This document shows positions 9,545 to 53,114 of a DNA stretch of 64,000 nt, in pieces (the first letter of the stretch is position 1; each line of letters opens with the position of its first letter). The position numbers and the translations under genes were made by a program. The notes under the pieces were generated by a model. The model saw nothing but the letters and a program-made list of their open reading frames with translations. It ran no database searches and had not been told where the DNA came from. The stretch spans positions 320,001 to 384,000 of the forward strand of contig JBGAON010000003.1 in assembly GCA_044221725.1 (NCBI GenBank), given 5' to 3'. The DNA comes from Elusimicrobiota bacterium (lineage in GTDB: Bacteria > Elusimicrobiota > Elusimicrobia > F11).

Positions 9545-10288
9545 TTAGTTCGTGAGTTTTTTCAAGTATTCCTTCGTGAAATACTTGTCAGGGAGGGGGG
9601 CGACGATCATTTTGTCGTAAATTAGCACCGAATATTGGTCTTTGTTGACGGCGTCGCGCATCGTGAGTTTGGTGGGACGTAGCCCGCCGCCAAATTCCTT
9701 GTACGCTTCGTAGGTGCAAATTTTTAATAGCCGTCCAGAGAACGCGTAAAATTCGGCTTGGTAGGGACGGTAGTTCTTAACATCGACCCACAGGACCGCG
9801 CGGCCGTAGGTCACGTTTTCATTTTTAGCGGTCAGCATCAGCGTGTAATACTTCCGACCTTTCATTTCTTTTATCTTGATCAGTTCCGCGTCATAATCGG
9901 CCGAAAAGTTTGTGCGCGCGAGGTCGCCGTTCGCCACGTCGCCCGTGAGTCTTTCTTGCGCGGAAATCCGAATTGGCTTTGATACGTTCGGCATGAAGGC
10001 CCAAAAATTTTCGGTGTTCATAAGCAGCACCCGCCCTTTGTCGATGGCGGGTTCCAGCGTTTTCACGATGGCGTTTTCGCGGCCCTTCACCATTACGGAG
10101 TAAAGAGAATTGGCGGGCGCTCGATTCGGTTTAATGCTTGTCACCTTCACCTGCACCGTGTAATCGAGTTGGGGATTTCGTACTTCGTCGCACTTCGCGA
10201 CAATAGAGTTCGCGTCCGGTTCCGCTGCAAAGCTCGGAACAAAAACGAATCCAAAAATGATTGCTGGGATTAAGCGACCGCGGATCAT
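9545..10288 (-). CDS. Outer-membrane lipoprotein-sorting (LolA-like) protein
   Basis: Signal peptide; FWAFMP..KPIRIS..RLTGDVANGDL and EFYAFSGRLLK patterns. Confidence 0.8.
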   Translation of the reverse strand: MIRGRLIPAIIFGFVFVPSFAAEPDANSIVAKCDEVRNPQLDYTVQVKVTSIKPNRAPANSLYSVMVKGRENAIVKTLEPAIDKGRVLLMNTENFWAFMPNVSKPIRISAQERLTGDVANGDLARTNFSADYDAELIKIKEMKGRKYYTLMLTAKNENVTYGRAVLWVDVKNYRPYQAEFYAFSGRLLKICTYEAYKEFGGGLRPTKLTMRDAVNKDQYSVLIYDKMIVAPLPDKYFTKEYLKKLTN

Positions 10289-10330
10289 TAACGAATTGTA
10301 ACGGCAAGTCGTTTTCTTATCAACGATTTT

Positions 10331-11284
10331 TTAACCGTTTGCAGCGAGCGGTAGTGAGGACGGAAGTATTTCAGAGAAATCGTATTCCGGATAAATGTTT
10401 TTCAGTGTGACAACTTGCTCCACCGTAAGATCGGAGTGAATCAACGGAGAGGCGTGGATCATTTCCTTTATGTTGTCGGGGGATAACCGAAGCATCCGCT
10501 TAAATTTCTCCGGGGAAGCGGGTGTGCCATAAAAAAGTTTGTAGGCAACGTGCGTTTGCGCTTGCGCCTCCGTTTCTCGAAAATTGAAATGGCGGGCGAT
10601 CGCCGGGTTGTTCCCAGCGATGGCGTAGTCCGTAAGGCCTCCCAGTGGCTGGAATTGGAGAAAATTGTAGAGCGTATCGTGCCGCGGATGGTAGCACGCC
10701 ACTATCTCCGCAATATCTGTTTTTGTGCGCACGTAATCAAAAATGACTTTGAAAAAATTAATGAGAATGAGCATTCGTTTCGACCGGGAAAACGTTTTGC
10801 TCGAAAGCGACCGATCGAATGCCAGAAGCGACGCTTCCGCGATTTGGCCTTTTTGTTTTCGCAGCACGTCGAGCTGTGCTTTGTAGTTTTTATCCATCGG
10901 CACACCGAGCGGCGAATCTTGAATTAACGTGAGCGTTGCGAGCACGTAACGTCGTTTATAAACCACGATGAATGTATGGTTGTTCGGCAATAACTGTTGA
11001 AGAACAAAGCGGGATTGGGTCTGTTGTGGCGCCTGAAGCTTTCGTTTCAAATATTCTTCGTAAACCAGGTGCGAAGCGACTTTGAGTTCTTCCATCGTTT
11101 GAACCGGACGAAATTCAAAATCTCTCATGTGCCAGGATGACAATCCTTTCCAAATCACCTGAAGGAGCGGCAAGGATTTGCCGTTGCTGAGAAAATTGCG
11201 CTGCGGATGGTTGTTTTCAATGAATGGTGCCGTGGCGGTGGCACGAGCGTTTGTCGAGCTGTTCAAGTCCGTGTCATTAAACAT
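10331..11284 (-). CDS. FeeM-like N-acyl amino acid synthase (copy 1)
   Basis: LVYEEY, TLTLIQDSPLGVPMD, AEASLLA, HPRH..LY, AGNNPAIA resemble the FeeM/NAS GNAT fold. Confidence 0.8.
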   Translation of the reverse strand: MFNDTDLNSSTNARATATAPFIENNHPQRNFLSNGKSLPLLQVIWKGLSSWHMRDFEFRPVQTMEELKVASHLVYEEYLKRKLQAPQQTQSRFVLQQLLPNNHTFIVVYKRRYVLATLTLIQDSPLGVPMDKNYKAQLDVLRKQKGQIAEASLLAFDRSLSSKTFSRSKRMLILINFFKVIFDYVRTKTDIAEIVACYHPRHDTLYNFLQFQPLGGLTDYAIAGNNPAIARHFNFRETEAQAQTHVAYKLFYGTPASPEKFKRMLRLSPDNIKEMIHASPLIHSDLTVEQVVTLKNIYPEYDFSEILPSSLPLAANG

Positions 11285-11406
11285 GTTGTTGATTCGCCTC
11301 CCGTTGAAAGTCTAGCGGAATCGTCGTTCGTTACGTCGTGACTTTCGTCATCGCATGAATTCTTGCAACGGTCGTGCCAGAAGAAGCCGCGAAGAAACGC
11401 GTTGTT

Positions 11407-12453
11407 TTATGGGTGGGAAAAGAATTTTTCGAATTGTGTGTGCATACGGGAGGCTTCTTCGTAACCGAAGTCGATCAGACGAGCAATGTAGGAGGATTGA
11501 AACCGAAACGCGCGCGTCGAAAATTTCTTTTTCGTGATATCGCTCGTGTCAGAAAACTCATTGAGCAAGTTTTCGACATCTTTTGAAGGGGTGAGAACTT
11601 TAAGTTCAACGTCTTTCCCTAGCGAGGTTGAGTGCAAATCTCCCGTGAGCGGGTCATGACTTAACGCCTTAATAAGAACCTGGAACAGCAAAGCAGAATC
11701 TGTTTGGAAATCGCTCGGATAGGGATAAAGCGATCTCGGTTTGGGCGGTTGTGTGGAAATCGCCAAGATTTTTTTCGCTCCCATTTGAACGGCGGCCGTG
11801 AGCGGCTTTGTCATGTTAATAGAACCGTCGGCGAAATAATGTTCGTGGATTTTTACGGGCGGAAGAAAAAAAGGCACGCTGCAGCTGGCCACAACGTGTT
11901 GCGGACCGATTTCTTGAGGAAGCCCAATCGAATCGTTAAGGTGCCACGGGGTCACGCGGAGCCCTTCAATAAACCAAACAGGATAACAATGGACAACGTC
12001 CGTGGCTGCGATCGCCAGTCCGAGCGTCGATTCGTACCGGAAGTTCTCCATTAAACTTTGCCGATCAAAGCCCTTGTTAACGATGCGTTCGACCGCCTTT
12101 CCATCGAATAGAGACCAAAAACCTTCTTGTCGATTTAATTTTTTACGTGCATGGCGAAACAAGGACTTAATGAGGTTGGGCAGCGGTTGTTGGTAGTACT
12201 CGGGTACGTGAAAGCTTCTCCACATATCTTCGAGGACCAAGCGCTGCTGAAACGCGTGGGAGGAGCGACAAGCATAAAACGTGGTGTTTAAAGAGCCGCA
12301 TGAAATTCCCGAGAAAATTTGAAACGGGCTCCGTTCCGCTCGACAAAATTTTTCGTGAATATACGTGAGCACGCCGGCTTGATAAGCGCCCATCGCACCG
12401 CCGCCGCTGCACACCAGTCCAAATATCGGATGTTTTTTTTGTTCACTTTCCAT
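11407..12453 (-). CDS. Patatin-like phospholipase/acyl hydrolase
   Basis: SGGGAMGAY, GISCG nucleophile motif, ASCSVP, DGS. Confidence 0.88.
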   Translation of the reverse strand: MESEQKKHPIFGLVCSGGGAMGAYQAGVLTYIHEKFCRAERSPFQIFSGISCGSLNTTFYACRSSHAFQQRLVLEDMWRSFHVPEYYQQPLPNLIKSLFRHARKKLNRQEGFWSLFDGKAVERIVNKGFDRQSLMENFRYESTLGLAIAATDVVHCYPVWFIEGLRVTPWHLNDSIGLPQEIGPQHVVASCSVPFFLPPVKIHEHYFADGSINMTKPLTAAVQMGAKKILAISTQPPKPRSLYPYPSDFQTDSALLFQVLIKALSHDPLTGDLHSTSLGKDVELKVLTPSKDVENLLNEFSDTSDITKKKFSTRAFRFQSSYIARLIDFGYEEASRMHTQFEKFFSHP

Positions 12454-12506
12454 CGCGCACGGTAAGTGTGCGGAGAAAGCGGCCGAGCGTCAAGGAATAG
12501 GTTGGA

Positions 12507-13748
12507 TTAGGAATGCTTCTTTATGGCGAGAACAGCGTTATGTCCACCGAATCCGAACGAGTTCGAAAGCGCGGCATTGATGTGAGCGGAGCGCGCAGAA
12601 TTCGGAACATAGTCCAAATCGCAGTCCGGATCCGGCTGTTCGTAATTAACGGTCGGATGGACCACTTTGTTTTCCATGCAGAGCAGCGTCGCGATCAGTT
12701 CCACACCGCCGGAGGCTCCGAGCAAATGTCCCGTCATTGATTTGGTGGCAGAAACCGGAATTTTTTTGGCGCGATCTCCAAAAACCATTTTTATCGCTTT
12801 CGTTTCGCTTTTGTCATTTAAAGTTGTGGCGGTTCCGTGCGCGTTTATATAGTCGATTTCAACGAATTCCATGTTAGCGTCGCGCAAGGCACCGCGCATC
12901 GCTTGTGCAGCGGCCGTGGCTTCGGGGCCGGGAGACGTGATGTGATAGGCATCGTTCGTGGCGGCGTACCCCGCTAGTTCCGCATAAATTTTTGCTCCGC
13001 GCCTTTTTGCGTGCTCTTCGGTCTCAAGCACAACGACGCCAGCACCCTCTCCCATTACAAATCCTGAACGCTTTCCGTCAAAAGGGCGGCTCGCTCGGTT
13101 CGGTTCGTCATTGAAGTTTGTGGTCATCGCCTTTGCTTGGCAAAAACCCGCAATCGCCGACGCCGTGATGGCGCTCTCCGAGCCACCGGCGAGAATCATG
13201 TCCGCGTCGCCATAGCGCAAATGTCGCAATGCCGACCCAATCGCGTGATTCGCCGTGGCGCATGCTGCTGAAACCGAATAGACGGGGCCCGTGAAGCCTG
13301 TGTGAACAGCAATTTGTCCGGCCGCTCCGTTGGTGACAAACATCGACAGAAGACGAGAGGAAACTTTGCGCGGACCGTCTTTCATGAGAATGGAGTGTTG
13401 CTGTTCAAGCGAAGGCAATCCGCCTATGCCAGATCCCACAATGACGCCAGCCCGGTCAAGCTCAACTTTGGTCAGATCAATTTCAGCATCGTTCAGCGCC
13501 ATACGAGCGGCGCATACTGCAAAAAGGCCAAACCGGTCGAGATGGCGCGACTGCTTCCGGTCAAGGTGATTCAGTGGGTCGAAATTCTGAACTTCCGCGT
13601 CAATCTTGCAAGGAGATTCGCTCGCATCGAAACGGGCGATTTTTCCAACTCCGTTTTTTCCGCCAGCTAGCGCTTTCCAAAAATCGGTGCATCCAATTCC
13701 AATGGGGCTTATTACACCGAGGCCTGTAATAACCACTTTTTTACGCAT
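12507..13748 (-). CDS. fabF: Beta-ketoacyl-ACP synthase II
   Basis: SAACAT catalytic Cys, INAHGT, TGHLLGA, NSFGFGGHN. Confidence 0.93.
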   Translation of the reverse strand: MRKKVVITGLGVISPIGIGCTDFWKALAGGKNGVGKIARFDASESPCKIDAEVQNFDPLNHLDRKQSRHLDRFGLFAVCAARMALNDAEIDLTKVELDRAGVIVGSGIGGLPSLEQQHSILMKDGPRKVSSRLLSMFVTNGAAGQIAVHTGFTGPVYSVSAACATANHAIGSALRHLRYGDADMILAGGSESAITASAIAGFCQAKAMTTNFNDEPNRASRPFDGKRSGFVMGEGAGVVVLETEEHAKRRGAKIYAELAGYAATNDAYHITSPGPEATAAAQAMRGALRDANMEFVEIDYINAHGTATTLNDKSETKAIKMVFGDRAKKIPVSATKSMTGHLLGASGGVELIATLLCMENKVVHPTVNYEQPDPDCDLDYVPNSARSAHINAALSNSFGFGGHNAVLAIKKHS

Positions 13749-13787
13749 AGACCTCTGTTAGAAAACTACTCTAAAAGAAGCAACAAC

Positions 13788-14047: not shown

Positions 14048-14701
14048 TTAATGATTGGGCGCAACGTTTGGTTTGTCACTCGCTGTTGCCATTGTTTCGG
14101 TGATGAATCCGTTGATCTGTTGGCTGTAATTGATCGTCCCAAACTTTGAAGAAGTAATAAGCCGCGACATTTCTTCCGAAGGGGGTAGCTCCTCCCACTT
14201 TTTCAGTTCCGCCTTAGCTTTTTTTACCGAGCGAAACAGAAAGCAGTTTCGAATGAAGTGGAAGAACACTGTCAGCCCGGTTAGTTTGTGAAAATCTTGA
14301 ATCAACAGCGTCCCACCGGGCGCCAACACTCGTTTAATCCGCAACAAAAGTTCGTCCCGCGTCGCGAATTTATGGAATGAAAGACTGCTTACCACGACGT
14401 CGAACCATTGTTCTTTAAATTCCGCGCTGTTGGACAGATCACTTCGCGTAATTTTCCAGCTCGGACGTGACTTCCTCAGAACTTCTGAGACAAAACCCTC
14501 GTTTGTGCCAACCTCTAATACTTTCAAGCTGTGGTGGTGACCAACGAGATGGAGGATTTTCTCGACGAACTTCAATTGTTCGTCTCGATTTGGGTAATTC
14601 TCTTCGTCCACCATCGTCCCGATTTGAAATTTCGACTCAATCATCTCTTGAAGGTTGACCGGGCGTGATGCTTTCGTCAAGGATTTATCGCGAAAAAACA
14701 A
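14048..14701 (-). CDS. Class I SAM-dependent methyltransferase
   Basis: VLEVGTNEG, FDVVVSSLSFH, RVLAPGG. Confidence 0.8.
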   Translation of the reverse strand: MFFRDKSLTKASRPVNLQEMIESKFQIGTMVDEENYPNRDEQLKFVEKILHLVGHHHSLKVLEVGTNEGFVSEVLRKSRPSWKITRSDLSNSAEFKEQWFDVVVSSLSFHKFATRDELLLRIKRVLAPGGTLLIQDFHKLTGLTVFFHFIRNCFLFRSVKKAKAELKKWEELPPSEEMSRLITSSKFGTINYSQQINGFITETMATASDKPNVAPNH

Positions 14702-14746
14702 CCTAATACTTGTAAATGAATGCGTGACCCAGCATACTTTTTGATT

Positions 14747-16285
14747 ATGGGACGTTCGATCGAGTCGGCATTGAAATTGTGGAAAAAAGTATTGGGACCT
14801 GATTGTGCAGTGAACGACGCCGAAAGCTTGCGAGCTTATTCGAATGACACGACGGTCAATCCTCCAAAAGCTTCTGCGGTTTTAAAACCGAAAGATATTC
14901 AAAGTGTCCAGGCGATCGTCAAGATCGCTAATCATCACCGAGTGCCCATATATCCAATCAGTCGCGGAAAAAATTGGGGCTACGGTGCGGCGTGTCCCGT
15001 AAACGATGGCGACGTGGTTGTGGATTTGAGTGACTTAAACCGAATTGTTGACGTAAACACAGAACTTGCTTATTGCGTGATTGAGCCCGGCGTTACTCAG
15101 CAGCAGCTCTATGACCATTTAACCAACAACAAAATTCCACTTTGGATGGATGTGACCGGTGGTCCACCGGATTCAAGTTTAATTGGAAACGCATTGGAGC
15201 GCGGATTTGGACACACGCCATACGCGGACCATTTCCGGTCCATTTGCGGATTGGAAGTCGTGTTGCCGAGCGGTGAGCTGATCAAAACCGGATTTGGCCA
15301 TTTCCAAAACGCTCAAACGGCGCATCTTTATCCGTACGGTATCGGTCCGTATCTTGACGGGCTATTCACACAATCCAACTTTGGAATTGTCGTGCGAATG
15401 GGAGTTTGGCTCATGCCCAAGCCCGAGACGATGACCGCTTTCTTCGGGAAGATCGAGGATGATGCCGCCTTGCTGCACGTTGTCGAAAAGCTGCGCGTGA
15501 TGAAATTAAATCGTGATCTTCCAGGTTGCCTGCATATTGCGAACGCTCAACGCGTACTTTCCATGGGGGATTCCGCACCAAAAGACGTTAAGGCGTGGAA
15601 TTTTTCCGGCGCCTTTTACGGAGACTCGGCCGACGTCAAACTTAAAACCAGGAAACTTCTCAATCGGCTTCGAGATGTGGCTGAACTAAAATTTGTCGAC
15701 GAGCAAAAACTCAGGATCGCAAAAAAATTTCCGAATGCTTTGAAGACGCTGACCGGAGTCGATTTGCCAAGGATGTTGCCGGCATTGTCTTCTTTCTTTG
15801 GATTGTTGAAAGGTGTCCCGAACGGGCACGCTCTAAAAGGAGCATACTTCAGAAATCCCACGCCGGTACCGAGAAAAAATATCGATGCGGTGCGAGATAA
15901 TTGCGGTCTTTATTGGATTTCTCCGGTGATTCCTGCGCATCCCTCAGCGCTCACGCGCTTTCTAGCGCTTGTACGGCCCATATATAAGATGTTCGACTTC
16001 GATTTTCACGCAACATTGAATCTCGGAGAAGGACGAACCATTTGCGCGATCCTCTCCATTTCGTTCAACAAGTTTGACCACGCCGAAGCCGTTCGGGCGA
16101 GCCGCTGCTACGAAAAACTTTCGCGAGAATTAATTGGGGCTGGGTACGTGCCGTACCGCACCGGCGTGCAATCGATGCGTTCGGTTGTGAAGCGTAACGA
16201 TTCCTTTTGGAAATTCGTGAACACTCTTAAAGAGGGAATCGACCCAAATCAGATTCTTTCGCCAGGGAGATACAACATTGGATAA
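14747..16285 (+). CDS. VAO/p-cresol methylhydroxylase family flavoprotein (FeeG-like)
   Basis: SRGKNWGYG, IEPGVTQ, GNALERGFGHTPY, QSNFGIV, PYR, DPNQILSPGRY. Confidence 0.9.
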   Translation: MGRSIESALKLWKKVLGPDCAVNDAESLRAYSNDTTVNPPKASAVLKPKDIQSVQAIVKIANHHRVPIYPISRGKNWGYGAACPVNDGDVVVDLSDLNRIVDVNTELAYCVIEPGVTQQQLYDHLTNNKIPLWMDVTGGPPDSSLIGNALERGFGHTPYADHFRSICGLEVVLPSGELIKTGFGHFQNAQTAHLYPYGIGPYLDGLFTQSNFGIVVRMGVWLMPKPETMTAFFGKIEDDAALLHVVEKLRVMKLNRDLPGCLHIANAQRVLSMGDSAPKDVKAWNFSGAFYGDSADVKLKTRKLLNRLRDVAELKFVDEQKLRIAKKFPNALKTLTGVDLPRMLPALSSFFGLLKGVPNGHALKGAYFRNPTPVPRKNIDAVRDNCGLYWISPVIPAHPSALTRFLALVRPIYKMFDFDFHATLNLGEGRTICAILSISFNKFDHAEAVRASRCYEKLSRELIGAGYVPYRTGVQSMRSVVKRNDSFWKFVNTLKEGIDPNQILSPGRYNIG

Positions 16286-16958
16286 ATTGGTAACCATAAA
16301 ATCAGTCACAAAGAATTATTTTCTGGGTAAGCAGACGTCCTCCGCTTTACGCGGAGTAAGCCTCAATATCGAACGCGGCGAATTCTTAGCGATTTCGGGT
16401 CCCTCGGGGAGCGGCAAAACCACCTTGCTGAATCTTATCGGGTGCATAGAAACTCCGACTCAGGGCAGCGTCATTATCGACGGGGTCGACGTAGGAACCC
16501 TAAGCTCGGATCAAAGTGCCGAATTAAAAATGAACAAAATCGGTTTTGTATTTCAGAATTTTAATCTGTTGCCAGTATTGACGGCGCTTGAAAATGTCGA
16601 ATACCCGCTTTTCCTAAAGCATGTTCCAAAGCTGCAGGTGCGAGAGCGGGCACGAAAAGCATTGGCCGATGTCGGGCTTGCTACGCGCGAAAATCACAAG
16701 CCGATGGAGATGAGCGGGGGGCAGCGACAGCGCGTCGCCATTGCGCGCGCCATCGTTTCCCAACCACAACTGGTGTTAGCCGATGAGCCGACGGCAAACC
16801 TCGATCATAGCACCGGGCTTGAGATTTTGGATCTCATGAAATCGATCAATGTTGCAAATCAAACGACCTTCATTTTCGCGACTCATGACCCGAAGGTGAT
16901 CGCTAAAGCATCCCGCAACGTGTCCATGATAGACGGACTTATCGAGGGGGACAAATGA
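16278..16958 (+). CDS. ABC transporter ATP-binding protein (LolD/MacB-like)
   Basis: GPSGSGKT, MSGGQRQR, LADEPTANLD. Confidence 0.95.
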   Translation: MDKLVTIKSVTKNYFLGKQTSSALRGVSLNIERGEFLAISGPSGSGKTTLLNLIGCIETPTQGSVIIDGVDVGTLSSDQSAELKMNKIGFVFQNFNLLPVLTALENVEYPLFLKHVPKLQVRERARKALADVGLATRENHKPMEMSGGQRQRVAIARAIVSQPQLVLADEPTANLDHSTGLEILDLMKSINVANQTTFIFATHDPKVIAKASRNVSMIDGLIEGDK

Positions 16959-18211
16959 TTCTGAAACTTGGTTTCCGGAACGTTTTCCGACACAGGATTC
17001 GCTCACTCGTGGCATTATTTTCGGTGTCTTTCGGGTGTATTGGGATAATTTACTGCGGAGGATTCTTTGAAGACATTTTTATCGAGGTCCGCGAGAATCT
17101 CATCCATTCGTTAACGGGGCACATCCAATTAACTCGGGTCGGATTTCGAGAGTTAGGCCGATCCCGCCCATTCGAATTTCTTATCGATAATCCGGATGAA
17201 GTTTTGGATTTGACGCGAAAAATGCCGCACGTGGTAATGGCCACGCCTCGCCTGCACTTTTCTGGACTATTGAGTACCGGGGATAATTCAGTCTCTTTTG
17301 TTGGAGAAGGTATCGTTCCTCAGGATGACGCGTTCGTTATGGGAAAGGATGTCGAAAAAAACCGCGTTCTTCGCGGGGCGGGAGCGGTAATTGAGCAGGG
17401 AGAATCGCTTAGCAATGCGGATCCCTTTGGTATTAATCTCGGACGAGGACTGGCTGATAGTATTGGAGCAAAAGTCGGAGATAATCTGATTATGGTGGCG
17501 CGAACGGACGGTGGATCAATCAACGCGTTCGACGTCAGGGTTCGGGGAATTTTTTACACCGGATATAAACAAGCGGATGATTATTTCATTCGCATTCCTC
17601 TTTCGACCGCACAGCGCCTCCTTCGAACTTCTTCGGTTGATTCGATAATTGTGAATATCGATCTGACGAAAAATACATTCGATGTGCAGAAGGAATTTAA
17701 AAATGTGATTCGAAACAAAAAATTAGGGCTCGAGGTAAAGTCTTGGATTGAATTGAGTGATTATTATGTTGCCGTAAAAGCGCTGTTCGGTCGGATATTT
17801 CTCGTGATAAATATCGTGGTGGTTTTTTTGGTGGTATTCAGTATTTACAATACACTAAGCCTCGCTGTTTCGGAGCGCACTAACGAAATCGGTACACTGA
17901 TGGCGATGGGATCGAAACGTTCGGATATTGTAAAGCTGTTTATCGTAGAAGGTATGGCACTTGGAGCCATCGGCGGAGTATTCGGTTCTGCTATTGGTTG
18001 TGCCGTCACTTGGACGATTGCTCAAATTGGAATTCCTATGCCTCCGCCGCCGGGATTGGCCGTTGAGTGGACTGCTCGGCCCATCGTACTTCCTTTTAAT
18101 GTTTGTTTTGCGATGCTCGTGACTTTTTTGGCTTCTCTAATCTCTTCAATCTTTCCCGCGTATCGCGCCGCGAAGATGGAGATTGCTCAATGTTTGAGAA
18201 GTTCTAACTAA
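16955..18211 (+). CDS. ABC transporter permease (LolC/E, FtsX-like)
   Basis: TM1 + periplasmic domain + ERTNEIGTLMAMG, PAYRAAK. Confidence 0.92.
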   Translation: MILKLGFRNVFRHRIRSLVALFSVSFGCIGIIYCGGFFEDIFIEVRENLIHSLTGHIQLTRVGFRELGRSRPFEFLIDNPDEVLDLTRKMPHVVMATPRLHFSGLLSTGDNSVSFVGEGIVPQDDAFVMGKDVEKNRVLRGAGAVIEQGESLSNADPFGINLGRGLADSIGAKVGDNLIMVARTDGGSINAFDVRVRGIFYTGYKQADDYFIRIPLSTAQRLLRTSSVDSIIVNIDLTKNTFDVQKEFKNVIRNKKLGLEVKSWIELSDYYVAVKALFGRIFLVINIVVVFLVVFSIYNTLSLAVSERTNEIGTLMAMGSKRSDIVKLFIVEGMALGAIGGVFGSAIGCAVTWTIAQIGIPMPPPPGLAVEWTARPIVLPFNVCFAMLVTFLASLISSIFPAYRAAKMEIAQCLRSSN

Positions 18212-19430: not shown

Positions 19431-19435
19431 TTCGC

Positions 19436-20608: not shown

Positions 20609-20609
20609 A

Positions 20610-20867
20610 TCAGTTTGTGGAGTCCTTTCGCTCAATGTACTCGTTTATTCGTAGAGGTCTTGGTCCGATTCGTTTGCCGTCGAGTTTGTCGACAATATAG
20701 CTGACATCCGTCGTATCCATGTCCACATAAGCGTAGGCATCGAACGTCGCATTCTCCATATCTTCAAATAATTGCACATTGGCGACTTTGCCAAACGGTT
20801 CGAACAGCGACCGGATTTCATCTCGAGTAAATCCGAACGGCATGCATCCGACAAAAATTCGTTTCAT
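20610..20867 (-). CDS. RRM RNA-binding protein
   Basis: RNP2 IFVGCMP, LFEPFGKV, RNP1-like AYAYVDM, LDGKRIGPRPLRINE; ATGA overlap with the upstream gene. Confidence 0.85.
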   Translation of the reverse strand: MKRIFVGCMPFGFTRDEIRSLFEPFGKVANVQLFEDMENATFDAYAYVDMDTTDVSYIVDKLDGKRIGPRPLRINEYIERKDSTN

Positions 20868-23160: not shown

Positions 23161-23215
23161 ACTGACCTCCGGTATTTGCTTCTGCTTTAGTCTGAGGTCA
23201 TCGCCGCTAAGGGCT

Positions 23216-23240
23216 GTAAAACTGTGTCAAACGAGAGTAA
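23216..23240 (-). promoter_or_regulatory. Triple direct repeat GTAA-N6-GTCA-N7-GTAA upstream of the desaturase
   Basis: Same spacing as the motifs at 24333 and 31032. Confidence 0.6.
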
Positions 23241-23305
23241 AAAGTCGCGCGCTTCAGGTTCGTGTTGATTTATACGGCTGTTTCGCTTCGACGGGAAATT
23301 CATAG

Positions 23306-24271: not shown

Positions 24272-24304
24272 ATTCGTCTCCTTTGACTTCTTTGTGCTGG
24301 TCTC

Positions 24305-24378
24305 AGGCTATCCGGAAGGTGCTCATCGGCGTGTAAGACTATGTCAGGCTTCTGTCAGCACGCGATTCGTGTTGATTT
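24305..24378 (-). promoter_or_regulatory. Activator-type promoter: triple direct repeat plus -10 (TAGCCT) upstream of FeeM copy 2
   Basis: GTAA 24333, GTCA 24343, GTCA 24354, GTTGATTT 24371; similar to 31004-31075. Confidence 0.7.
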
Positions 24379-24436
24379 TTAAATATGTCTTTCCGTCGGT
24401 GAGATGGCCGTTATACTTTTCGATAGGGCCGAATTT

Positions 24437-26383
24437 ATGGCCCGTCATCCCATGAGATCACGAACCTTCACGCGCGCGATGTTGATAGCTTTGATGCTCG
24501 GAACCGTGCTTCCGTGCCCGCTATTTGCTGGGCAGACTGACACTGGACACGCGGGTACGGTTGCGGCGCCTTTCTTGCAACTGAACTCCAGCGTTCGCAG
24601 TGCTGCTCTCGGCGGCTATCAAGCGGCGCTTTCGGGCGATCTTCAGTCGCAATTCTCGAATCCCGCCGGATTGGCCAATGTGAGTTCGCCAGAATTGTGG
24701 TTCTCGCACAATCAATCGATTGAAAAGACGAAAGTGGACTCGCTGGGATTTGCGTCGAATCTAAAATCAAACGCGCTGTCGTTCGCGATTCAGCAATTTG
24801 GTTACGGATCCGCAGACCGGGTGGATCTCGATGCAAGCGGTAATCCCGTTACGGGACAGGGTAGTTTTAGTTTTTCAACCACGCTTCTCGAGGCTGGATG
24901 GGCGCGCCCTGTTGGTGATTCGCCGATCACTGAAAAAATAGCCGTCGGCGCTGTTGCCAAAGGATGGCGTGACAGCCAAGCCGGAACGTCGAAAACAGGC
25001 TGGGCCGGAGATATTGGCGTTCAATGCTACGGCTTGTTGTTTCAATCGCTTGATCTTGGATTGTCTGCTAGGAACTTTGGGCCCTCGGTCGACGGCTACA
25101 ATCTGCCACGCAGCATTGCCATTGGCGGCGCTTATCACATTGTTCCGCATGAAAGCGTTCTTAAACGTGTAAGCGTATTTTCCGAACTCGATATTCCTCG
25201 TCAACAAAGTGCCGTTCTTCGTTCGGGATTTGAACTTAATCAAAATTGGGTGTGGGAACGCCTCGGGTTTGAAAACGTCAATAATCATCCCGAAGATTCA
25301 TTGAGTCGTTTTTCATTCGGCGCCGGCATTCGGATAAAGAATCTCAAATTGGATTATGCGTGGTCCCCGCAAGGAGACCTTGGTGATATTCACAGGTTGT
25401 CACTTCAAGTGGGCTTTGGACTTACGCCGGAAGAAAAAAGAGACATGGCAAAAAATATCGACGCGGCTATTCAAAAGAGGTCGATTGAGAAATCTTCGAG
25501 CTTTATCGCGTTGGCGCAGCAGGCGATGAAAGAAGGGAAATGGAAGGTCGCACAAGGCAATCTTGAGACAGCTCTGATCTGGAGCCCTAGAGATGAAAAG
25601 ACCCGAGAGCTTTTGCAATCGGTGCAAGACAAAGCGCGCTATTCGGAATCGCGGTTGTTGTACCAGGAAGGCATGGAACTGTTTCAAGACGAACAATGGC
25701 TCGACGCAGCGCTTAAATGGGAACAAGTATTAAAGATTGATCCAAAGAACAAAAACGCTCGGCAAAATCTCATTGTGGCGCGCGATAAAATGGCGCGCGC
25801 AGGCTCCCAAAGAAAGGCCGAACTATCCGCTGCCGAAAAGGCGTTCGACCGCGGGACGCGTGCTTATCTGGATGGACGGTACGACGACGCGATCAACGAA
25901 TGGATGATGGTCAAAAAGTTGGCGCCGGGCACGCACGACATCAATACTTACATCGTGAAAGCGAAGAACATGAAGTTAACGGAGGAAGTCACAAAGCTTA
26001 AGAAAGAAGCGGCTCCCGAGAATTCAATGGCGGAGACGCTTTCGCAAGAAGCGTATACGTGGTACAGCCTTGGTCAAATCGATAAGGCTGTGGAAAACTG
26101 GGAAAAAGTTTTGGTGCTTGATCCTTCCAACGCCGATGCAAAGGCAGCGCTAAAAGAAGCGCGCGCACGCAAAAATTTATCTAAAAATGAAAGCCCACCC
26201 CAAACATCTGGAAAGGTCACGGAGTTAAACGCAGCAGCACTGAAAAATTACCGCGAAGGGAATCTCGATGCCGCGGCCGCCAATTGGCGCAAAGCGCTTC
26301 AGATTGATCCGCACAATGTTTGGATTCGCAGTTATTTAAATCGGGTCGAACGTGAAATTACGGATAGGGAGAACAGTCGTTGA
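24437..26383 (+). CDS. PorV/PorQ-like beta-barrel fused to C-terminal TPR repeats
   Basis: FLQL..SVRSAALGG, FSNPAGLA, LDYAWSPQGDLGDIHRLSL, followed by multiple TPRs; start uncertain (24404-24479). Confidence 0.8.
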   Translation: MARHPMRSRTFTRAMLIALMLGTVLPCPLFAGQTDTGHAGTVAAPFLQLNSSVRSAALGGYQAALSGDLQSQFSNPAGLANVSSPELWFSHNQSIEKTKVDSLGFASNLKSNALSFAIQQFGYGSADRVDLDASGNPVTGQGSFSFSTTLLEAGWARPVGDSPITEKIAVGAVAKGWRDSQAGTSKTGWAGDIGVQCYGLLFQSLDLGLSARNFGPSVDGYNLPRSIAIGGAYHIVPHESVLKRVSVFSELDIPRQQSAVLRSGFELNQNWVWERLGFENVNNHPEDSLSRFSFGAGIRIKNLKLDYAWSPQGDLGDIHRLSLQVGFGLTPEEKRDMAKNIDAAIQKRSIEKSSSFIALAQQAMKEGKWKVAQGNLETALIWSPRDEKTRELLQSVQDKARYSESRLLYQEGMELFQDEQWLDAALKWEQVLKIDPKNKNARQNLIVARDKMARAGSQRKAELSAAEKAFDRGTRAYLDGRYDDAINEWMMVKKLAPGTHDINTYIVKAKNMKLTEEVTKLKKEAAPENSMAETLSQEAYTWYSLGQIDKAVENWEKVLVLDPSNADAKAALKEARARKNLSKNESPPQTSGKVTELNAAALKNYREGNLDAAAANWRKALQIDPHNVWIRSYLNRVEREITDRENSR

Positions 26384-28149
26384 AGTCGGCGTCCTTGAAG
26401 TTTCTCGCCTGGGTCTTGTTCTTCTTGGCAATTTCATGTCCGGTATTTGCGATCTATTGGACTTTGGTCGATCCGTCGGCCATTCCGTATGACCGCCGAG
26501 AAGTCGCTCCAGCAGCGTTCAACGGATATTTCTATGTTGCGTCCGCAACGGCGCCTCTTAACTCTGGAATCTTTCCGACACGAGTCTTCAGATCCGCGGA
26601 CGGATTGAGTTGGACGTTAGCGAACAATTTCGGAAACAATATTCAGATTACGCAGCTCATTGCTAACGGCCAAAACTTGTACGCGTTTGTCGATGATCGA
26701 CTGGGGGCTTACCATGTTTATCGAAGTGCCGATGGATTAACGTGGACGGACGTTTACACTGGCATGGGAAACAGTTATTTCATGCCTCTCGTGTCTTTTG
26801 GCGGCTTCATTTATCAATTTGATAGTTCCGCTGGCTTTACAATAAGAAAGTCCGACGGATTAGGGAATCCATTGACGTGGCAGATCGTGTCGCAAGGACC
26901 CGGAACAATTACTCCAAATTTTCCAGTCAAGGCAACGGAATTTCAAAACGAAGTTTACGTATTGTCTTACAGCGGGTCAGGGCCCACGTACGACATAAAT
27001 ATTTTCAAGTCCCCGGATCTCGGAAATTGGACTCTTTCAAAATTGATACCAAACAATATTCCCCGTCCGAGCTTAGCAGCTTGTTCGTCTGGTCTGTATT
27101 CAGGACTCGGGGACGTATGGAGGCTTCCAAGTTCTACCGAGACTTGGGCCATTGATCTTGCGGGCCCCCTCAACGGAACAATTTATCCCATGAAAGTTTT
27201 CGGACATACACTCGCTTTCCGGCCTGGGCCGACGCAGGGAAATCCTCAGACTAGCCAAGACGATTTATTGGTTCGCTCCTCGTCAGGTAGCTGGTCAATC
27301 GATTCCACGTGCCAAGGAATTGGTGCCCCTACATTTGAGACTTTACCGATATCCATAGCGGATATAGCCTATATTCCGGCTTGCACATCGGCGAGGATTT
27401 TTAAAGACGGGTTGGTTTCGCTCGCACGTAAAACATTTATCTTGCCGACGTTGAGCTTTGACCAAAGAGACGCCACCCTATCCGCGATGACCTTGACGAT
27501 AAACCTCGATGAAACTTTAACGTCATTCGTCGTTGAAAACCTGGGTTCCGCGAGAGCAACGACCGATATTAAACGCTTGCAACTGCTCCGTTCGCGATTC
27601 GTTGCGAGTGTCGAGACTTTCACGACGGTGTGTGAGTTGGCCGCTGACTCTGATACCAAAACTTGGCGCATGCCGAACGGTACTCAAGTATCGCTTCAGG
27701 ATCAGGACAATTTGTACGTAACAGCGGATATCGCAAGCTTTCCGACCAATTTGGCAACGGTACAGCTGTCGGTGACGTCAATGGGATGGGCAAGAAATAT
27801 TTCCTACACGCCGCCACTTCCGCTTGTTGCGCCGCAGTCGATCGCGATCAACGGCAATCCGTCCGCTCCTACTACAATCTCGGACGTTCTTCCGTCGCCC
27901 CAACCGGCGAGCAATCAAGTGAAGTTTTTTTACGACCTCAACTCTATGGCTGACGTGCACATAAAAATTTTCAATGTGACAGGGGAACTTGTTAGTCAAG
28001 TTTCAGATACAGGAAAAGCGGCCGGCCGAAATTCGTCCATCTGGGATTCAACGAAGGTCGCCTCCGGAGTTTATTACGCCACCGTTGAGATTATTGAGCA
28101 GAGTGGCGGAACAAGGCGCTACCGCAAAACGGTGTACATTAAAAAGTGA
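26380..28149 (+). CDS. Secreted beta-propeller-like protein with T9SS type A / FlgD-like C-terminal domain
   Basis: Signal peptide, repeated RSADGLxW (Asp-box-like) motifs, C-terminal PQP..IKIFNVTGELV..WD..VASGVYY..KTVYIKK. Confidence 0.7.
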   Translation: MKSASLKFLAWVLFFLAISCPVFAIYWTLVDPSAIPYDRREVAPAAFNGYFYVASATAPLNSGIFPTRVFRSADGLSWTLANNFGNNIQITQLIANGQNLYAFVDDRLGAYHVYRSADGLTWTDVYTGMGNSYFMPLVSFGGFIYQFDSSAGFTIRKSDGLGNPLTWQIVSQGPGTITPNFPVKATEFQNEVYVLSYSGSGPTYDINIFKSPDLGNWTLSKLIPNNIPRPSLAACSSGLYSGLGDVWRLPSSTETWAIDLAGPLNGTIYPMKVFGHTLAFRPGPTQGNPQTSQDDLLVRSSSGSWSIDSTCQGIGAPTFETLPISIADIAYIPACTSARIFKDGLVSLARKTFILPTLSFDQRDATLSAMTLTINLDETLTSFVVENLGSARATTDIKRLQLLRSRFVASVETFTTVCELAADSDTKTWRMPNGTQVSLQDQDNLYVTADIASFPTNLATVQLSVTSMGWARNISYTPPLPLVAPQSIAINGNPSAPTTISDVLPSPQPASNQVKFFYDLNSMADVHIKIFNVTGELVSQVSDTGKAAGRNSSIWDSTKVASGVYYATVEIIEQSGGTRRYRKTVYIKK

Positions 28150-29504
28150 AATTAAAAACAAAATTCATCGTGGCGATGTCGACGCTAGTGACGGTCTCCG
28201 TGCTGGTAGGCGGAGCACTGAACATCGTCGGCGAAAGGCGACTTCTGAAGCGTGAAATGAACGCCCAACAACAAGAAACGATGAAACGACTTGCGCGGGT
28301 ATGCGAAGAATCGCTCTATCAAAAAAATCTTAGTTTCTTTAATTATCTTCCAACGCTTGAATCTGAACGAGGATTCAAAGCAGCGTTTTTCGAAGATTCC
28401 ACAGGAATCATCCAAATGCATTCGGATCCCGAACAAATGGGGAAGAAAATCCCTGCGGTGAATAGTGATTTATTGGATTTATCAGAGCCCATTACCTACG
28501 CCGGCACGCGCGTGGGAAATGCGCATCTTATTTTGTCGAAAACAGAAGTGGACAAGCTTTTCATGGAATCGTTGATGGATGCGGTTCAACGCACAATCAT
28601 CACAATGCTTGCCTCATTGTTGCTTGGGTGGTTTGGCGCCTTATTTCTCGGAAGCACAATGATCACACCCATTCAGCGCCTCATCGACGGGTTCAGAAAA
28701 GTTGCAACAGGCGCGCTGGAACCGATCGCGTTTCCGGAACGTCATGACGAGTTGGGGCAAACATTCAAAGAACTGAACGTAACCATCGAAAAATTAAAAG
28801 AAATGGAAGATATGAAGCGGAATTTCTTCGCGCAGGTAACGCACGAACTTCGCTCGCCGCTCACGACGAATCAAGGGTTTCTCAGTTTGATCCTTCGTGG
28901 CCGGTACGGCACGCTCAACGACGAACAGCGCGGATTGTTTCTCACCATGCACAACAATCTGGATCGACTAGCTCGGCTGGTCGACGATCTTTTAACGACG
29001 TCGAAACTTGAAAGCAAGAAAGAAACTTTGGAACCGACTCAATTCGATGCCAAGAAAGTGGTGCAGGAAGTTATCGAGATGTACGTGCCTCTTTTTGAAC
29101 AGAAAAAGCTAAAGCTTGCCACCAACTTCCCGAACGAAGCGGTAATGATTCGAGCGGACTACGACAAATTAATTCACATTCTTTCCAATTTGATCTCAAA
29201 CGCGATCAAGTACACACCCAAAGGTTCGGTTTCAATAGGAATAAAAGAGCAGGGCGCCAACGTCGCTATTTGGGTCACCGATACGGGACTCGGAATTCCG
29301 GCTTCGGACCAACCACAGATCTTCAATCACTTTTTTCGAAGTTCGAACGCAAAAAACGTGAAGGGAACCGGTTTGGGATTGGCGATTGTGAAGAATCTGG
29401 TGGAAATGCATGGCGGGCAAATTCGTGTGGACGAGAATCCCGGGGGGGGATCAATTTTTTCTTTTTCGCTTCCGAAGAAAATAGGGATGAAAAAGGCCGC
29501 GTGA
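28146..29504 (+). CDS. HAMP-domain sensor histidine kinase
   Basis: Two TMs, HAMP, THELRSPL, NLISNAIKY, DTGLGI, GTGLGL. Confidence 0.95.
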   Translation: MKLKTKFIVAMSTLVTVSVLVGGALNIVGERRLLKREMNAQQQETMKRLARVCEESLYQKNLSFFNYLPTLESERGFKAAFFEDSTGIIQMHSDPEQMGKKIPAVNSDLLDLSEPITYAGTRVGNAHLILSKTEVDKLFMESLMDAVQRTIITMLASLLLGWFGALFLGSTMITPIQRLIDGFRKVATGALEPIAFPERHDELGQTFKELNVTIEKLKEMEDMKRNFFAQVTHELRSPLTTNQGFLSLILRGRYGTLNDEQRGLFLTMHNNLDRLARLVDDLLTTSKLESKKETLEPTQFDAKKVVQEVIEMYVPLFEQKKLKLATNFPNEAVMIRADYDKLIHILSNLISNAIKYTPKGSVSIGIKEQGANVAIWVTDTGLGIPASDQPQIFNHFFRSSNAKNVKGTGLGLAIVKNLVEMHGGQIRVDENPGGGSIFSFSLPKKIGMKKAA

Positions 29505-30185
29505 CTACTCGGAGTCGAGTCTGTAGCCTACGCCACGGAGGCTTCGTAACAAATCGCGATTGGAGCCCAACTTTTTTCGGATTTGGTCGATCATCGTGTC
29601 CATTCGACGCGACAGTCGCGAAACGTCCGCTCCCCACACCGCTTCGGAAATGGTTGCTCGCGTCAGCACCTTACCTTCGTTCTTTGCCATAAACGCAAAC
29701 AATTCAAATTGTTTTGCTGACAGATCCAGTTGTTCATCGTCCATAAACACCGCGTACTTATCGAAATCGACTCGGAAAGGACCACAAACAAGCTCGCGCG
29801 ACTTTTGAGATCCGTCCTGGCGCCGAAATGCGGCTCTCACGCGCGCGAGAAGCACCGGTTCGCGCATCGGTTTCTCAATGTAATCTTCGGCGCCAATTTC
29901 AAGGCCCGCCACAACGTCAGCATCGTCGGCTTTGACGCTAACAAAGATGATGGGCACGTTTTGGGTGCTCTTATCTTCTTTCATTGCGCGACAAACATCC
30001 AGCCCGTTCATTTGAGGCATGCATACATCTAATAGTAGGAGGTCTGGAGGATCTGCTTTGATTTTCGGAAGAGCTTTCGTGGGATCGGTTTCTGAAACAA
30101 CGGTATATTCGTGCAAACCCAAAATTTTTTTAGCGAGCTCGATGCAGGACGGTTCGTCATCGACCACGAAGATCCGTTTCTTCAT
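29505..30185 (-). CDS. OmpR/PhoB family response regulator
   Basis: VVDDE, LLLDVCMP, DYIEKP, C-terminal winged helix RKKL..SLRGVGYRL. Confidence 0.95.
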   Translation of the reverse strand: MKKRIFVVDDEPSCIELAKKILGLHEYTVVSETDPTKALPKIKADPPDLLLLDVCMPQMNGLDVCRAMKEDKSTQNVPIIFVSVKADDADVVAGLEIGAEDYIEKPMREPVLLARVRAAFRRQDGSQKSRELVCGPFRVDFDKYAVFMDDEQLDLSAKQFELFAFMAKNEGKVLTRATISEAVWGADVSRLSRRMDTMIDQIRKKLGSNRDLLRSLRGVGYRLDSE

Positions 30186-30253
30186 GCTTCAATTGTGCGG
30201 CCAAAGCCTCGCCGCGTCAACGGGCTTTGCAGGATTGATCGTCGATAGATTGC

Positions 30254-30976
30254 TTACGCTGGGCGGCTTTTCTTTGTGGCAATAACCTCCAATAGATGTC
30301 CCAACGTGGCTGCGCGAGGGGCCGCGAACCCGGCGAGCTCGGCTTTGCCCAAGAGTTCGTTAACTTCGTCCGGTTTGTAGGCGGCGCGAAGGCTTTCAAC
30401 GTATTGCTTGCTCATCTGGATGGATCCCATCGAAATGGCTCCGCCCATAAATAGCAACGGAAAGAGAGCATTGTGCGGACGGCGCAAGTCTTGCAGCAGA
30501 ATGATGCCACCGGGAACGAGCACGCGTTTCATTTCTTCCAGCATGGCCAGCGCGTCGGGAAATTCGTGCAGCGCGAAATGGCTCACAATAATGTCGAAAT
30601 GTTCGGAGGGGAAGCCGGTTTTTTCGGCAAAACTCTTTACGAAACTCACGTTTTCCATTCCCTGGCAATGACGACGAGCTTTTTCGAGCATGAGATCTGA
30701 CGCATCGAGCCCGATGATTTCCCAATTTGGCCGCTCTTTGTGGAGTTCTTTCGGAATCCACCCGGGGCCGGTGCCGAGATCCAAAACTTTCAGTTTAGAG
30801 AAGCGGCCCGCGAAACTCAAAATACGTTTAATAAAGAGTCCACGTTCCCACCGGACGAGCCCTTTGTCCATTCGGTCGTTATAAATTTCGACTTCTGCCA
30901 CTTCATCGTAGCGGGAATCTTTTTCCGGAATACGGGCGGATTTCGTTGCCCATTCAGCATTTGGCGCGCGTTCCAT
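30254..30976 (-). CDS. Class I SAM-dependent methyltransferase
   Basis: VLDLGTGPG, GLDAS, FDIIVSHFALH, KRVLVPGG. Confidence 0.9.
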   Translation of the reverse strand: MERAPNAEWATKSARIPEKDSRYDEVAEVEIYNDRMDKGLVRWERGLFIKRILSFAGRFSKLKVLDLGTGPGWIPKELHKERPNWEIIGLDASDLMLEKARRHCQGMENVSFVKSFAEKTGFPSEHFDIIVSHFALHEFPDALAMLEEMKRVLVPGGIILLQDLRRPHNALFPLLFMGGAISMGSIQMSKQYVESLRAAYKPDEVNELLGKAELAGFAAPRAATLGHLLEVIATKKSRPA

Positions 30977-31003
30977 TGTAAAGCCTCCTTTCCCTCTGCT
31001 GTC

Positions 31004-31075
31004 AGGGTAATAGAGGAGGCTTCATCGGCGGGTAAGCTTATGTCAGGAGTATGTCAGCAATAAATGAGTTGATTT
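31004..31075 (-). promoter_or_regulatory. Activator-type promoter: triple direct repeat plus -10 (TACCCT) upstream of the methyltransferase
   Basis: GTAA 31032, GTCA 31042, GTCA 31053, GTTGATTT 31068. Confidence 0.7.
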
Positions 31076-32772
31076 TAGAAGTGATATTCCACTTCGATGT
31101 ATCCGCGGTCTTTGTTTTCGAAAATACCGAAATGGCCTTGATTCGGGTGGCCCTCGAAAATATCGGCACCCAACTTTGTGACGATGTGATCGCCGAAGCG
31201 GAGCGTAATTTTGGGACGATGCAATCGGTCTCTGCGACTTGGGTCGGTCAGAACCAGGTATTCCGGTTCCAGCTTTTTGTCGAGCAACGGCCATTTCACC
31301 CAAAATGTCCAAAGGCTGCTGCTCGGGCGTTCGTTTACGAGTTTATCGCCCGCGTCAGAAATTATTTTTTGGCTGAATTGGACATTTGTGTCGAGCGGGC
31401 CATATTGCCGCGACAAGCCGACCACATAGTTGAATGTGTCCTTGCGAGTGACGCCGTCCGTATCGGCGATGTCTGAGGTAGAGTAATAGCTATCCGGTTT
31501 GAGGTTTGCTTCGCCTTTGAGAATCGAGTCCCACAGGAAGTCTTTAGAAAGTGTCAACCCAAAGATATTTTGCCGCCGATATCCTGGCGCAAAATGGAAT
31601 CCGGAAAAATCGATGGTGCGAAAATAGATGGGAGATTTCTCCCAGGTGTAGAGCGCGAACGCGCTGATGTCGAGCCCGGCTACGAGCCGCGAAATCTTTG
31701 CTCCGGCATCCGCGCTGTCGGAACCGGTCGGTTCCGTGGGATCCTTCGTCGTTGTCGGTACCCCGGAAGGCGCGGGCAGGGGAAATGCAAACTCCGATCC
31801 TTGCACCGCAAATTTGTTGAATTCGGGCTTCGCAGCGAACAGTTCAAGATTCGCAATGTTGTGCGTGATGGACAGGTCCGCCGCCCACTGCGGTATTCGG
31901 ATTAAATCGAATTCGGGCAAAATGTATTCACGCAAGTCGATACCGTTTGCCACATCCGCGATGAACAGCGAAATCGCATCGCCCCACACGATTTGTTGTT
32001 TGCCGATGCGCAAGTCGAAGGCACCCGATGAATAATCAAGATACGCGTCTCGGAATTCCAGTTCGGATTCCAAATCGTCCTTCTCGAGCCCTTTCTTTTT
32101 CCGTTCGTCGTTGTTGTTCGCAACGGCCGTGTCGTAAAACGCGTGCTCGGATAATCTCAGTTGCAGCGCCTCGTTCACTTCGAACGATTGGTTCAGAAGG
32201 AGTCGCGTGCGATTTTTTGTGAATTGACGCGGTTCGCTGATGCGATACGCTACTTCCTGTCGAACGCTTCCTCCGAAATGAAAACGGTCCAAAAAGGGGG
32301 AGGCTGTTTCATTAACGTAAGACGACGTTTGTTTTGGTGGTGGGGGTGGCAAAGCGGCAGGTTTTCTTTCGGCTTTTTTTGCCGGCGGCACCGCCATCGC
32401 TGGAGGCAACGCCTTTTTCTGAGCTTCTTTGCGCGCCCGATCGCATTCGGCGTGCAACGCTTTTAGTTTTCGTGCGTATTTTTTGCGCGCTTCATTTATT
32501 TTTTCATTTCGGCTGGATTCCGAATCGTTCATCGACTTCAGGCTTCTGCGGGATGCCTTTTTTTTATCGGCATTGAAATTGTCGAGCAGAATCTTTTCGT
32601 TTTCGCGGCAATTTTCATTTACCTCGTCTAGCGCTGGGTTGTGGTGGGATGACTTTGCTTGCGCGTGGCTGCATTCGAAAAACGTCAGTAGGAATAACGC
32701 GAGCAGTGGCACTGCGCACGATTTAAAAATGTGGGCAGGATTAAGCGGCGGGTCTTGCTTCGTTGGCGTCAT
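31075..32772 (-). CDS. Outer-membrane beta-barrel (DUF1302-like) with N-terminal helical/Pro-rich extension
   Basis: FRDAYLDY, LRIGKQQIVWGDA, DLREYILP, terminal YIEVEYHF. Confidence 0.75.
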   Translation of the reverse strand: MTPTKQDPPLNPAHIFKSCAVPLLALFLLTFFECSHAQAKSSHHNPALDEVNENCRENEKILLDNFNADKKKASRRSLKSMNDSESSRNEKINEARKKYARKLKALHAECDRARKEAQKKALPPAMAVPPAKKAERKPAALPPPPPKQTSSYVNETASPFLDRFHFGGSVRQEVAYRISEPRQFTKNRTRLLLNQSFEVNEALQLRLSEHAFYDTAVANNNDERKKKGLEKDDLESELEFRDAYLDYSSGAFDLRIGKQQIVWGDAISLFIADVANGIDLREYILPEFDLIRIPQWAADLSITHNIANLELFAAKPEFNKFAVQGSEFAFPLPAPSGVPTTTKDPTEPTGSDSADAGAKISRLVAGLDISAFALYTWEKSPIYFRTIDFSGFHFAPGYRRQNIFGLTLSKDFLWDSILKGEANLKPDSYYSTSDIADTDGVTRKDTFNYVVGLSRQYGPLDTNVQFSQKIISDAGDKLVNERPSSSLWTFWVKWPLLDKKLEPEYLVLTDPSRRDRLHRPKITLRFGDHIVTKLGADIFEGHPNQGHFGIFENKDRGYIEVEYHF

Positions 32773-49789: not shown

Positions 49790-49790
49790 G

Positions 49791-53111: not shown

Positions 53112-53114
53112 TCA

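Follow-up and report, generated by a model that had tools for sequence, protein, structure and literature searches.

The fee cluster of the soil environmental-DNA clone CSLC2 (BGC0001591), which is said to go back to Brady, Chao and Clardy in 2002, presumably includes ABC transport and fatty-acid genes, and its dedicated acyl carrier protein (ACP) is one that we take to be FeeL. Here we analyse a 64,000-nucleotide stretch of DNA from an Elusimicrobiota bacterium (contig JBGAON010000003.1, positions 320,001 to 384,000; hereafter the window), in which a 23.2-kb gene island has in common with that cluster the FeeM synthases, a FeeG-type flavoprotein and, with 54% identity to a protein of that clone, a PP-loop protein, but differs from it in having no dedicated ACP, two FeeM copies, and an added GT1 glycosyltransferase, hydrolase, methyltransferases, patatin and sensor cassette. 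We estimate a probability of roughly 55% that the island makes a long-chain acyl-tyrosine lipid by the full fee route, likely phenol-glycosylated before export. The core chemistry is known already and recurs widely; the novelty lies in a probable identity and fold for FeeH, in the RRM-fold protein that accompanies it, and in the pairing of these two with a glycosyltransferase and a sensor cassette.

Several other described systems bear on this reading. Hyellamide from Hyella patelloides is a published N-acyl-tyrosine enamide glycosylated on its phenol, a precedent for the product favoured here, and its hye cluster resembles the island in its HyeB-like flavoprotein (42% identity) and in having no dedicated ACP; the two glycosyltransferases are of similar length (414 versus 408 residues), a likeness of length and not of compared sequence. 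The hye cluster differs in encoding an SGNH/GDSL acyltransferase, an RND transporter and a sugar acetyltransferase, and the accessible text names no FeeM or PP-loop enzyme in it (PMC11959600). No Pfam family of the SGNH/GDSL acyltransferase or sugar acetyltransferase kind is found among the island open reading frames (ORFs) scanned. CndG of chondrochloren biosynthesis shares the flavoprotein subgroup and a proposed decarboxylation, but takes its substrate from a polyketide synthase/non-ribosomal peptide synthetase line (PMC11350588). In the oxazolone (OxzAB, TyzABC) and stieleriacine clusters, as in the island, an N-acyl-tyrosine synthase is followed by ATP-dependent or oxidative tailoring, and the stieleriacine cluster likewise contains a methyltransferase and a desaturase (PMC7293339), but these clusters use ThiF and nitroreductase enzymes that are absent from the island (PMC10404671, PMC7293339). 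Finally, WbuX, WbpG and LpNASAT (PDB 8wex) share with the island PP-loop enzyme an SGGKDS PP-loop and a CxxC...GxCxxC motif (PMC10607449), whereas the island enzyme lies in a lipid-pathway context, has an RRM-fold neighbour and scores below the TIGR03573 cut-off.

An inserted island carries a recurrent fee-type core

The island (9545–32772) runs from a LolA-like gene to a DUF1302 gene and separates a cyclic nucleotide (cNMP) gene from a Ser/Thr kinase gene in a 2.82-Mb genome (G000). In all four relatives read (G001, G002, G004 and G009) the kinase gene comes immediately after the cNMP gene, so these limits, which coincide with those drawn in an initial annotation made from the sequence of the window alone, match those of an insertion. 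The block has a G+C content of 48.9%, and its middle 47.7%, against 52.1% for the genome; 11 of 557 10-kb windows are as low as the middle. A search for a target-site duplication at the island ends returned 7-8-mers only, and plasmid searches only distant matches. The gene classes named in the initial annotation are all recovered at their places by family scans and an ORF map, and the gene basis it gave for an N-acyl-tyrosine/enamide core with its own export and local regulation holds up; it overlooked the RRM-fold gene, the sensor cassette, the desaturase frameshift and the deletion in methyltransferase 1 (Table 1).

Two GNAT proteins, FeeM1 and FeeM2, are likely to make N-acyl-tyrosine from acyl-ACP. 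As had been proposed, both qualify as FeeM: they exceed the curated cut-off of 27 bits for PF21926, the Pfam FeeM family, and match PDB 2g0b, with whose catalytic glutamate each aligns a residue within a KLAEV motif. That glutamate is Glu95 of FeeM (PMC4897644), an equivalence that rests on our own count along the PDB chain, which is off by one. A third FeeM is encoded on contig C3 of the same genome, and 9 of 41 related genomes contain FeeM matches.

The flavoprotein is likely an oxidative decarboxylase of the FeeG/HyeB type. It is 42% identical over 96% coverage to WP_144872799.1, the single FeeG hit of the hyellamide study, where it is named HyeB (PMC11959600). Identity to ordinary phenol oxidases is 28-30%, in a comparison in which HyeB is itself a proposed enzyme and from which the FeeG and CndG sequences were absent; a FastTree phylogeny of 34 rows also places the flavoprotein outside a clade, with support of 100, of seven distant phenol oxidases. 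It carries an NWGYG motif, Tyr479 and Arg480, the latter two invariant in the alignment, which fits the Tyr-Tyr-Arg triad that we take to be the phenolate site. Flavoprotein loci number 17 in the genomes, six of them close (36-41% identity).

This core recurs elsewhere. A locus from another phylum (L002) contains, in a row, genes for a desaturase, the flavoprotein, permease, ABC ATPase, LolA-like protein, DUF1302 protein and FeeM, and genome G010 has a row of permease, FeeM and flavoprotein genes. In G004 the same set is spread over four short contigs; the DUF1302 gene lies beside FeeM there and in L002, and LolA-like homologues adjoin the ABC/permease genes in L002 and L115. The presence in G004 of ThiF and O-methyltransferase genes after the LolA-like gene (L115:4236–6057) suggests that the same export core there serves a route of the oxazolone type.

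The PP-loop enzyme is a probable FeeH orthologue

We find that the PP-loop enzyme is identical at 163 of 303 positions (54%) to AAM97301.2, a CSLC2 protein labelled 'adenine nucleotide alpha hydrolase superfamily protein', and CSLC2 is the source of the MIBiG entry BGC0001591, tabulated for fatty acid enol ester and N-tetradecanoyl tyrosine (PMC12464452, table). A protein search with the enzyme returned 139 relatives at E 1e-30 or better. From accession order we take AAM97300 to be FeeG and AAM97306 to be FeeM, by which AAM97301 would be FeeH, an assignment in which we have good though incomplete confidence; the island enzyme is then a probable FeeH orthologue. The initial annotation had recognised no FeeH and deduced a different end product. 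Given the 54% counterpart in the fee clone, that deduction probably fails. Searches for other CSLC2 proteins, through the permease and the RRM clusters, listed none.

The enzyme contains an SGGxDS PP-loop (as SGGKDS) and a tetracysteine motif, and scores 85.6 bits, below the cut-off of 203.2, with TIGR03573, the model for WbuX and N-acetyl sugar amidotransferases. A structure model built from 105 sequences reaches a predicted local distance difference test score (pLDDT) of 92.8; a first model from eight sequences was poor (58.7) and was left unused. The best fold match of the 105-sequence model is the N-acetyl sugar amidotransferase 8wex (TM 0.53-0.55, 16% identity). Enzymes of this family, which have the same SGGKDS loop and a zinc tetracysteine, convert an N-acetyl amide into an amidine, probably with ATP being split into AMP and PPi (PMC10607449). 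By analogy, we infer that the enamide becomes an enol ester through ATP activation of the amide. The enamide-to-enol-ester step is chemically odd, our literature search found no paper on its enzyme, and the PP-loop enzyme points to how it likely works.

An 85-residue RRM-fold protein is encoded immediately upstream, by an ORF that overlaps the stop of the hydrolase and terminates immediately ahead of the PP-loop start, and is coupled to both neighbours. In genome G194 and in 10 of 12 metagenome loci a homologue (38-46% identity) lies directly upstream of the PP-loop gene, and each of the two remaining loci has less than 210 bases of upstream sequence; in one protein, P0128, RRM fold and PP-loop enzyme are fused. 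No RRM gene was seen with the distant PP-loop branch typified by G411 and G413. The arrangement makes the RRM-fold protein a probable partner or subunit of the PP-loop enzyme, although it may instead be an RNA-binding regulator. A full-length family of some 139 members, together with a model of high confidence, a predicted ATP site and a candidate partner, makes the step directly testable.

The neighbourhoods of the PP-loop gene are consistent with a place in the fee route. Among the 12 metagenome loci, eight contain the permease gene, four the flavoprotein gene and two FeeM; nine contain at least one of these, and the remaining three are all contigs shorter than 2.6 kb. Within the phylum the family is present in 4 of 401 genomes, all of them among the eight with the flavoprotein; the two genes are 200 kb apart in G361, and in G194, of the same class, the PP-loop gene directly precedes the flavoprotein gene. 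In a tree, the G194 protein groups tightly with one labelled Elusimicrobia. The distant branch (32-33% identity) directly follows FeeM in G411 and G413, two genomes of Desulfobacterales type, where a single run (L114; L113:8463-13779, respectively) comprises FeeM, the distant PP-loop homologue, an acyl-CoA ligase and an NAD_binding_4 reductase. Separately, genome G035 (L046:9098-12100) encodes a protein in which a 7TM sensor domain and a methyltransferase are fused to a FeeG-type flavoprotein, with a FeeM-like gene nearby and a PP-loop homologue 11 kb away.

Tailoring genes and the proposed route

The GT1 glycosyltransferase, of the small-molecule type, gives 22 PDB matches, mostly to GT1 enzymes; weak matches only are found in relatives, in three of five. 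The cellulase-like hydrolase has no hydrophobic leader. Both genes are intact and belong to a translationally coupled hydrolase-RRM-PP-loop-GT1 run. The FabF paralogue is 65% identical to the housekeeping FabF. Methyltransferase 2 is intact, and a 32% identical homologue lies about 5 kb from the flavoprotein gene in G004; methyltransferase 1, with a deletion of about 25 residues, is probably degenerate. The desaturase gene is frameshifted, and its frame stops before the third His box, which sits in another frame. An assembly error was ruled out here, since contigs of runs X2, X5 and X6 bridge the place without a gap (X2 shares its sample with the possible source; X5 and X6 come from another study). 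The remaining frame (22339–23160) has as its best NCBIfam match the GntB arginine hydroxylase model, and so may be a hydroxylase, though the score of 77.7 bits is far below the cut-off of 380. Of the tailoring set in the initial annotation, the desaturase and methyltransferase 1 look damaged, and the PP-loop enzyme, taken there as amide-forming, is a probable FeeH orthologue. Its 'probably new' lipid is qualified by hyellamide, in which glycosylation of the scaffold is already published (PMC11959600).

A single ACP gene was found in the genome (94% complete), in the housekeeping fab operon, and one hidden between island genes was looked for and not found, so the absence of a dedicated ACP that had been reported is borne out. 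Because the dedicated ACP is missing and FeeH is unverified, the island is best filed as a fee-type variant and not as the fee cluster itself.

In the route we propose, FeeM1 and FeeM2 would acylate tyrosine with a chain drawn from housekeeping acyl-ACP, which the FabF paralogue perhaps lengthens. The flavoprotein would oxidatively decarboxylate the N-acyl-tyrosine to a 4-hydroxystyryl enamide, and the PP-loop enzyme, likely together with the RRM-fold protein, would activate the amide carbonyl at the expense of ATP, giving the enol ester. The phenol would be glycosylated by GT1, which the cytoplasmic hydrolase might reverse, and methyltransferase 2 may methylate the product. Outward movement of the lipid would fall to the ABC transporter, the LolA-like chaperone and the DUF1302 protein, and the histidine kinase/response regulator (HK/RR) pair would regulate feeM2 and methyltransferase 2 by way of a common upstream element. 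The gene identities, the insertion, the co-occurrence and the broken desaturase are observed; every chemical step is a prediction. So read, the island would provide, from an uncultured wastewater/bioreactor lineage, a delimited set of genes for a glycosylated fee lipid. As a tentative generalization, rather doubtful in its entirety, FeeH would be an ATP-dependent, zinc-binding enzyme of amidotransferase fold requiring a small RRM-fold subunit, and the island would join this enzyme to a paired glycosyltransferase and hydrolase and to an envelope sensor of its own, so as to make and export glycosylated hydroxystyryl enol esters; literature searches did not find such esters as a lipid class.

A sensor cassette and a shared upstream element

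Genes for a PorV-TPR protein, a secreted protein, an HK and an RR form a cassette at 24404–30185. The secreted protein has three copies in 401 genomes, all in cassettes of this composition and all adjoining a FeeM gene, against about 18 PorV-domain matches in G000. The second pairing of FeeM and cassette in this genome (L043, C3:523400-529800) lies beside mutS/mutL-like genes, with the cassette opposite in orientation to FeeM and without tailoring genes.

An upstream element with an 11-bp period precedes feeM2 and methyltransferase 2 in strong copies and the desaturase in a weak one; in G004 it stands between the RR and FeeM. With the motif, which was chosen by eye, scored on held-out sites, the feeM2 and methyltransferase 2 sites are each matched by three genome positions, training sites included; the count is five for the G004 site and at least 60 for that of the desaturase. 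An 11-bp spacing is typical of OmpR/PhoB-type regulators, and because of it we infer that the element is a candidate site for the local RR. A Pho-regulon reading was ruled out: the RR is below the PhoB cut-off, CTGTCA-type boxes precede another RR/HK pair on C3, and the island element differs from a canonical pho box and is reversed relative to feeM2. A riboswitch or known RNA was also ruled out, with one weak Rfam match (E 4.1). The two strong copies are direct repeats flanking the sensor cassette and methyltransferase 2, and may mark a duplication or rearrangement. A sigma-70 promoter scan found 10 sites versus 16.0 expected, and contigs from RNA runs cover 28 of 30 island bins in X5, coverage that does not by itself establish expression.

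Weighing the alternatives

A number of observations count against a full, glycosylating fee route. The FeeH assignment rests on accession order, our literature searches having given no paper that names AAM97301 as FeeH, and the deposited CSLC2 protein is without the N-terminal tetracysteine part. The 12 metagenome loci are close kin and not independent (60 of 117 rows treed), FeeM adjoins the flavoprotein gene in only two of the six closest loci, and in G004, which carries a ThiF gene, a close PP-loop homologue is missing. The amino-acid specificity of FeeM homologues is not readable from sequence, and the third FeeM, on C3, has no high-scoring copy of the element. The hydrolase occurs in 1 of 401 genomes, and in none of the related loci read are GT1, hydrolase, patatin or FabF found beside the core.

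The best-surviving alternative, an unlikely one in our judgement, comes closest to the initial annotation: the core would end at a hyellamide-like enamide glycoside, and the PP-loop enzyme would be a true N-acetyl sugar amidotransferase or an amide/amidine synthase acting on sugar or lipid. Its coupling to hydrolase and GT1 genes and its best HMM (hidden Markov model) and fold matches, to WbuX/NASAT, are what such an enzyme would lead one to expect, but its identity is 16% to NASAT as against 54% to the CSLC2 protein, no glycosyltransferase homologue lies beside the PP-loop gene in L082-L094, and the island is without glutaminase or nucleotide-sugar genes. The adjacent GATase, considered as an ammonia donor, was ruled out as part of the conserved chromosome backbone.

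Slightly less probable is a mosaic, in which a working FeeM-FeeG-(FeeH)-exporter core makes the known unglycosylated fee lipids and the genes for GT1, hydrolase, patatin, FabF and the methyltransferases are either in decay or carried along as passengers. The frameshifted desaturase, the degenerate methyltransferase 1, the failure to find accessory genes beside the core elsewhere and the low G+C of the island middle (47.7% versus 52.1%) all fit, but neither GT1 nor hydrolase is damaged, both are coupled to the PP-loop gene, and the hye cluster offers a precedent for GT1 next to a FeeG homologue (PMC11959600). Least probable is that the FeeM product is an autoinducer and that the cassette senses it within a feedback loop, as its constant adjacency to FeeM and the G004 element might suggest. 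The cassette comes from only two genomes of one family, binding of a lipid by the kinase is purely hypothetical, and the two strong element copies may simply be a promoter that was duplicated; this proposal concerns role and not chemistry, and is compatible with the glycosylated fee lipid favoured here.

Gene map and neighbouring loci

Table 1. Features of the island, with positions in the window
Feature	Position	Strand	Basis
LolA-like periplasmic lipid chaperone (left end)	9545..10288	-	PF17131, 155 bits
FeeM1 (GNAT)	10331..11284	-	PF21926, 87.7 bits; PDB 2g0b, E 2.9e-11
Patatin-like lipase	11407..12453	-	PF01734; GGGAMG, GISCG, DGS motifs
FabF paralogue	12507..13748	-	TIGR03150, 579.6 bits (cut-off 493.75)
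Methyltransferase 1, probably degenerate	14048..14701	-	EVGTNEG motif
VAO/PCMH flavoprotein, likely FeeG/HyeB type	14720..16285	+	FAD_binding_4; HyeB identity, alignment
ABC ATPase, LolD/MacB type	16278..16958	+	overlaps flavoprotein stop
Permease, LolCE/FtsX type	16955..18211	+	four hydrophobic segments
GT1-type glycosyltransferase	18204..19430	-	TIGR01426, E 1.6e-21, below cut-off
PP-loop enzyme, WbuX-like, probable FeeH	19436..20608	-	CSLC2 protein match, fold match
RRM-fold protein	20610..20867	-	PF00076
Glycoside hydrolase, cellulase-like	20864..22048	-	PF12876, 253.8 bits; 3gyc, E 3e-44; NEF and SEGW motifs
Membrane desaturase/hydroxylase, frameshifted	22175..23160	-	break near 22340-22365
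Upstream element, weak copy	23206..23241	-	leave-one-out score 8.3
FeeM2 (GNAT)	23306..24271	-	PF21926, 108.5 bits; PDB 2g0b, E 9e-13
Upstream element, strong copy before feeM2	24323..24380	-	TGACA/TGACA/TTAC, 11-bp period
PorV-like barrel and TPR protein	24404..26383	+	NF033709, over cut-off
Secreted protein, FlgD-Ig/T9SS-like C-terminal tail	26380..28149	+	domain scan
Sensor histidine kinase, two transmembrane segments	28146..29504	+	domain scan
Response regulator, OmpR/PhoB family	29505..30185	-	TIGR02154, 177 bits (PhoB cut-off 296)
Methyltransferase 2	30254..30976	-	DLGTGPG motif
Upstream element, second strong copy before methyltransferase 2	31022..31075	-	same motif
DUF1302 outer-membrane protein (right end)	31075..32772	-	PF06980

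Outside the island, groEL is followed by a REP-like palindromic repeat of about 75 bp (37120-37200); the genome has some 30 matches to it, and the congeneric genomes G001 and G003 have many. A row of type III polyketide synthase, methyltransferase and FAD oxidoreductase genes (48749-51592) constitutes a separate small biosynthetic operon and is followed by genes for an MGDG-synthase-like glycosyltransferase and a lipid A-type acyltransferase (51960-53981). An Xre/MbcA-RES toxin-antitoxin pair adjoins a tRNA-Pro gene (54073-54992), and a tyrosine recombinase gene lies near the end of the window (62314-63267).

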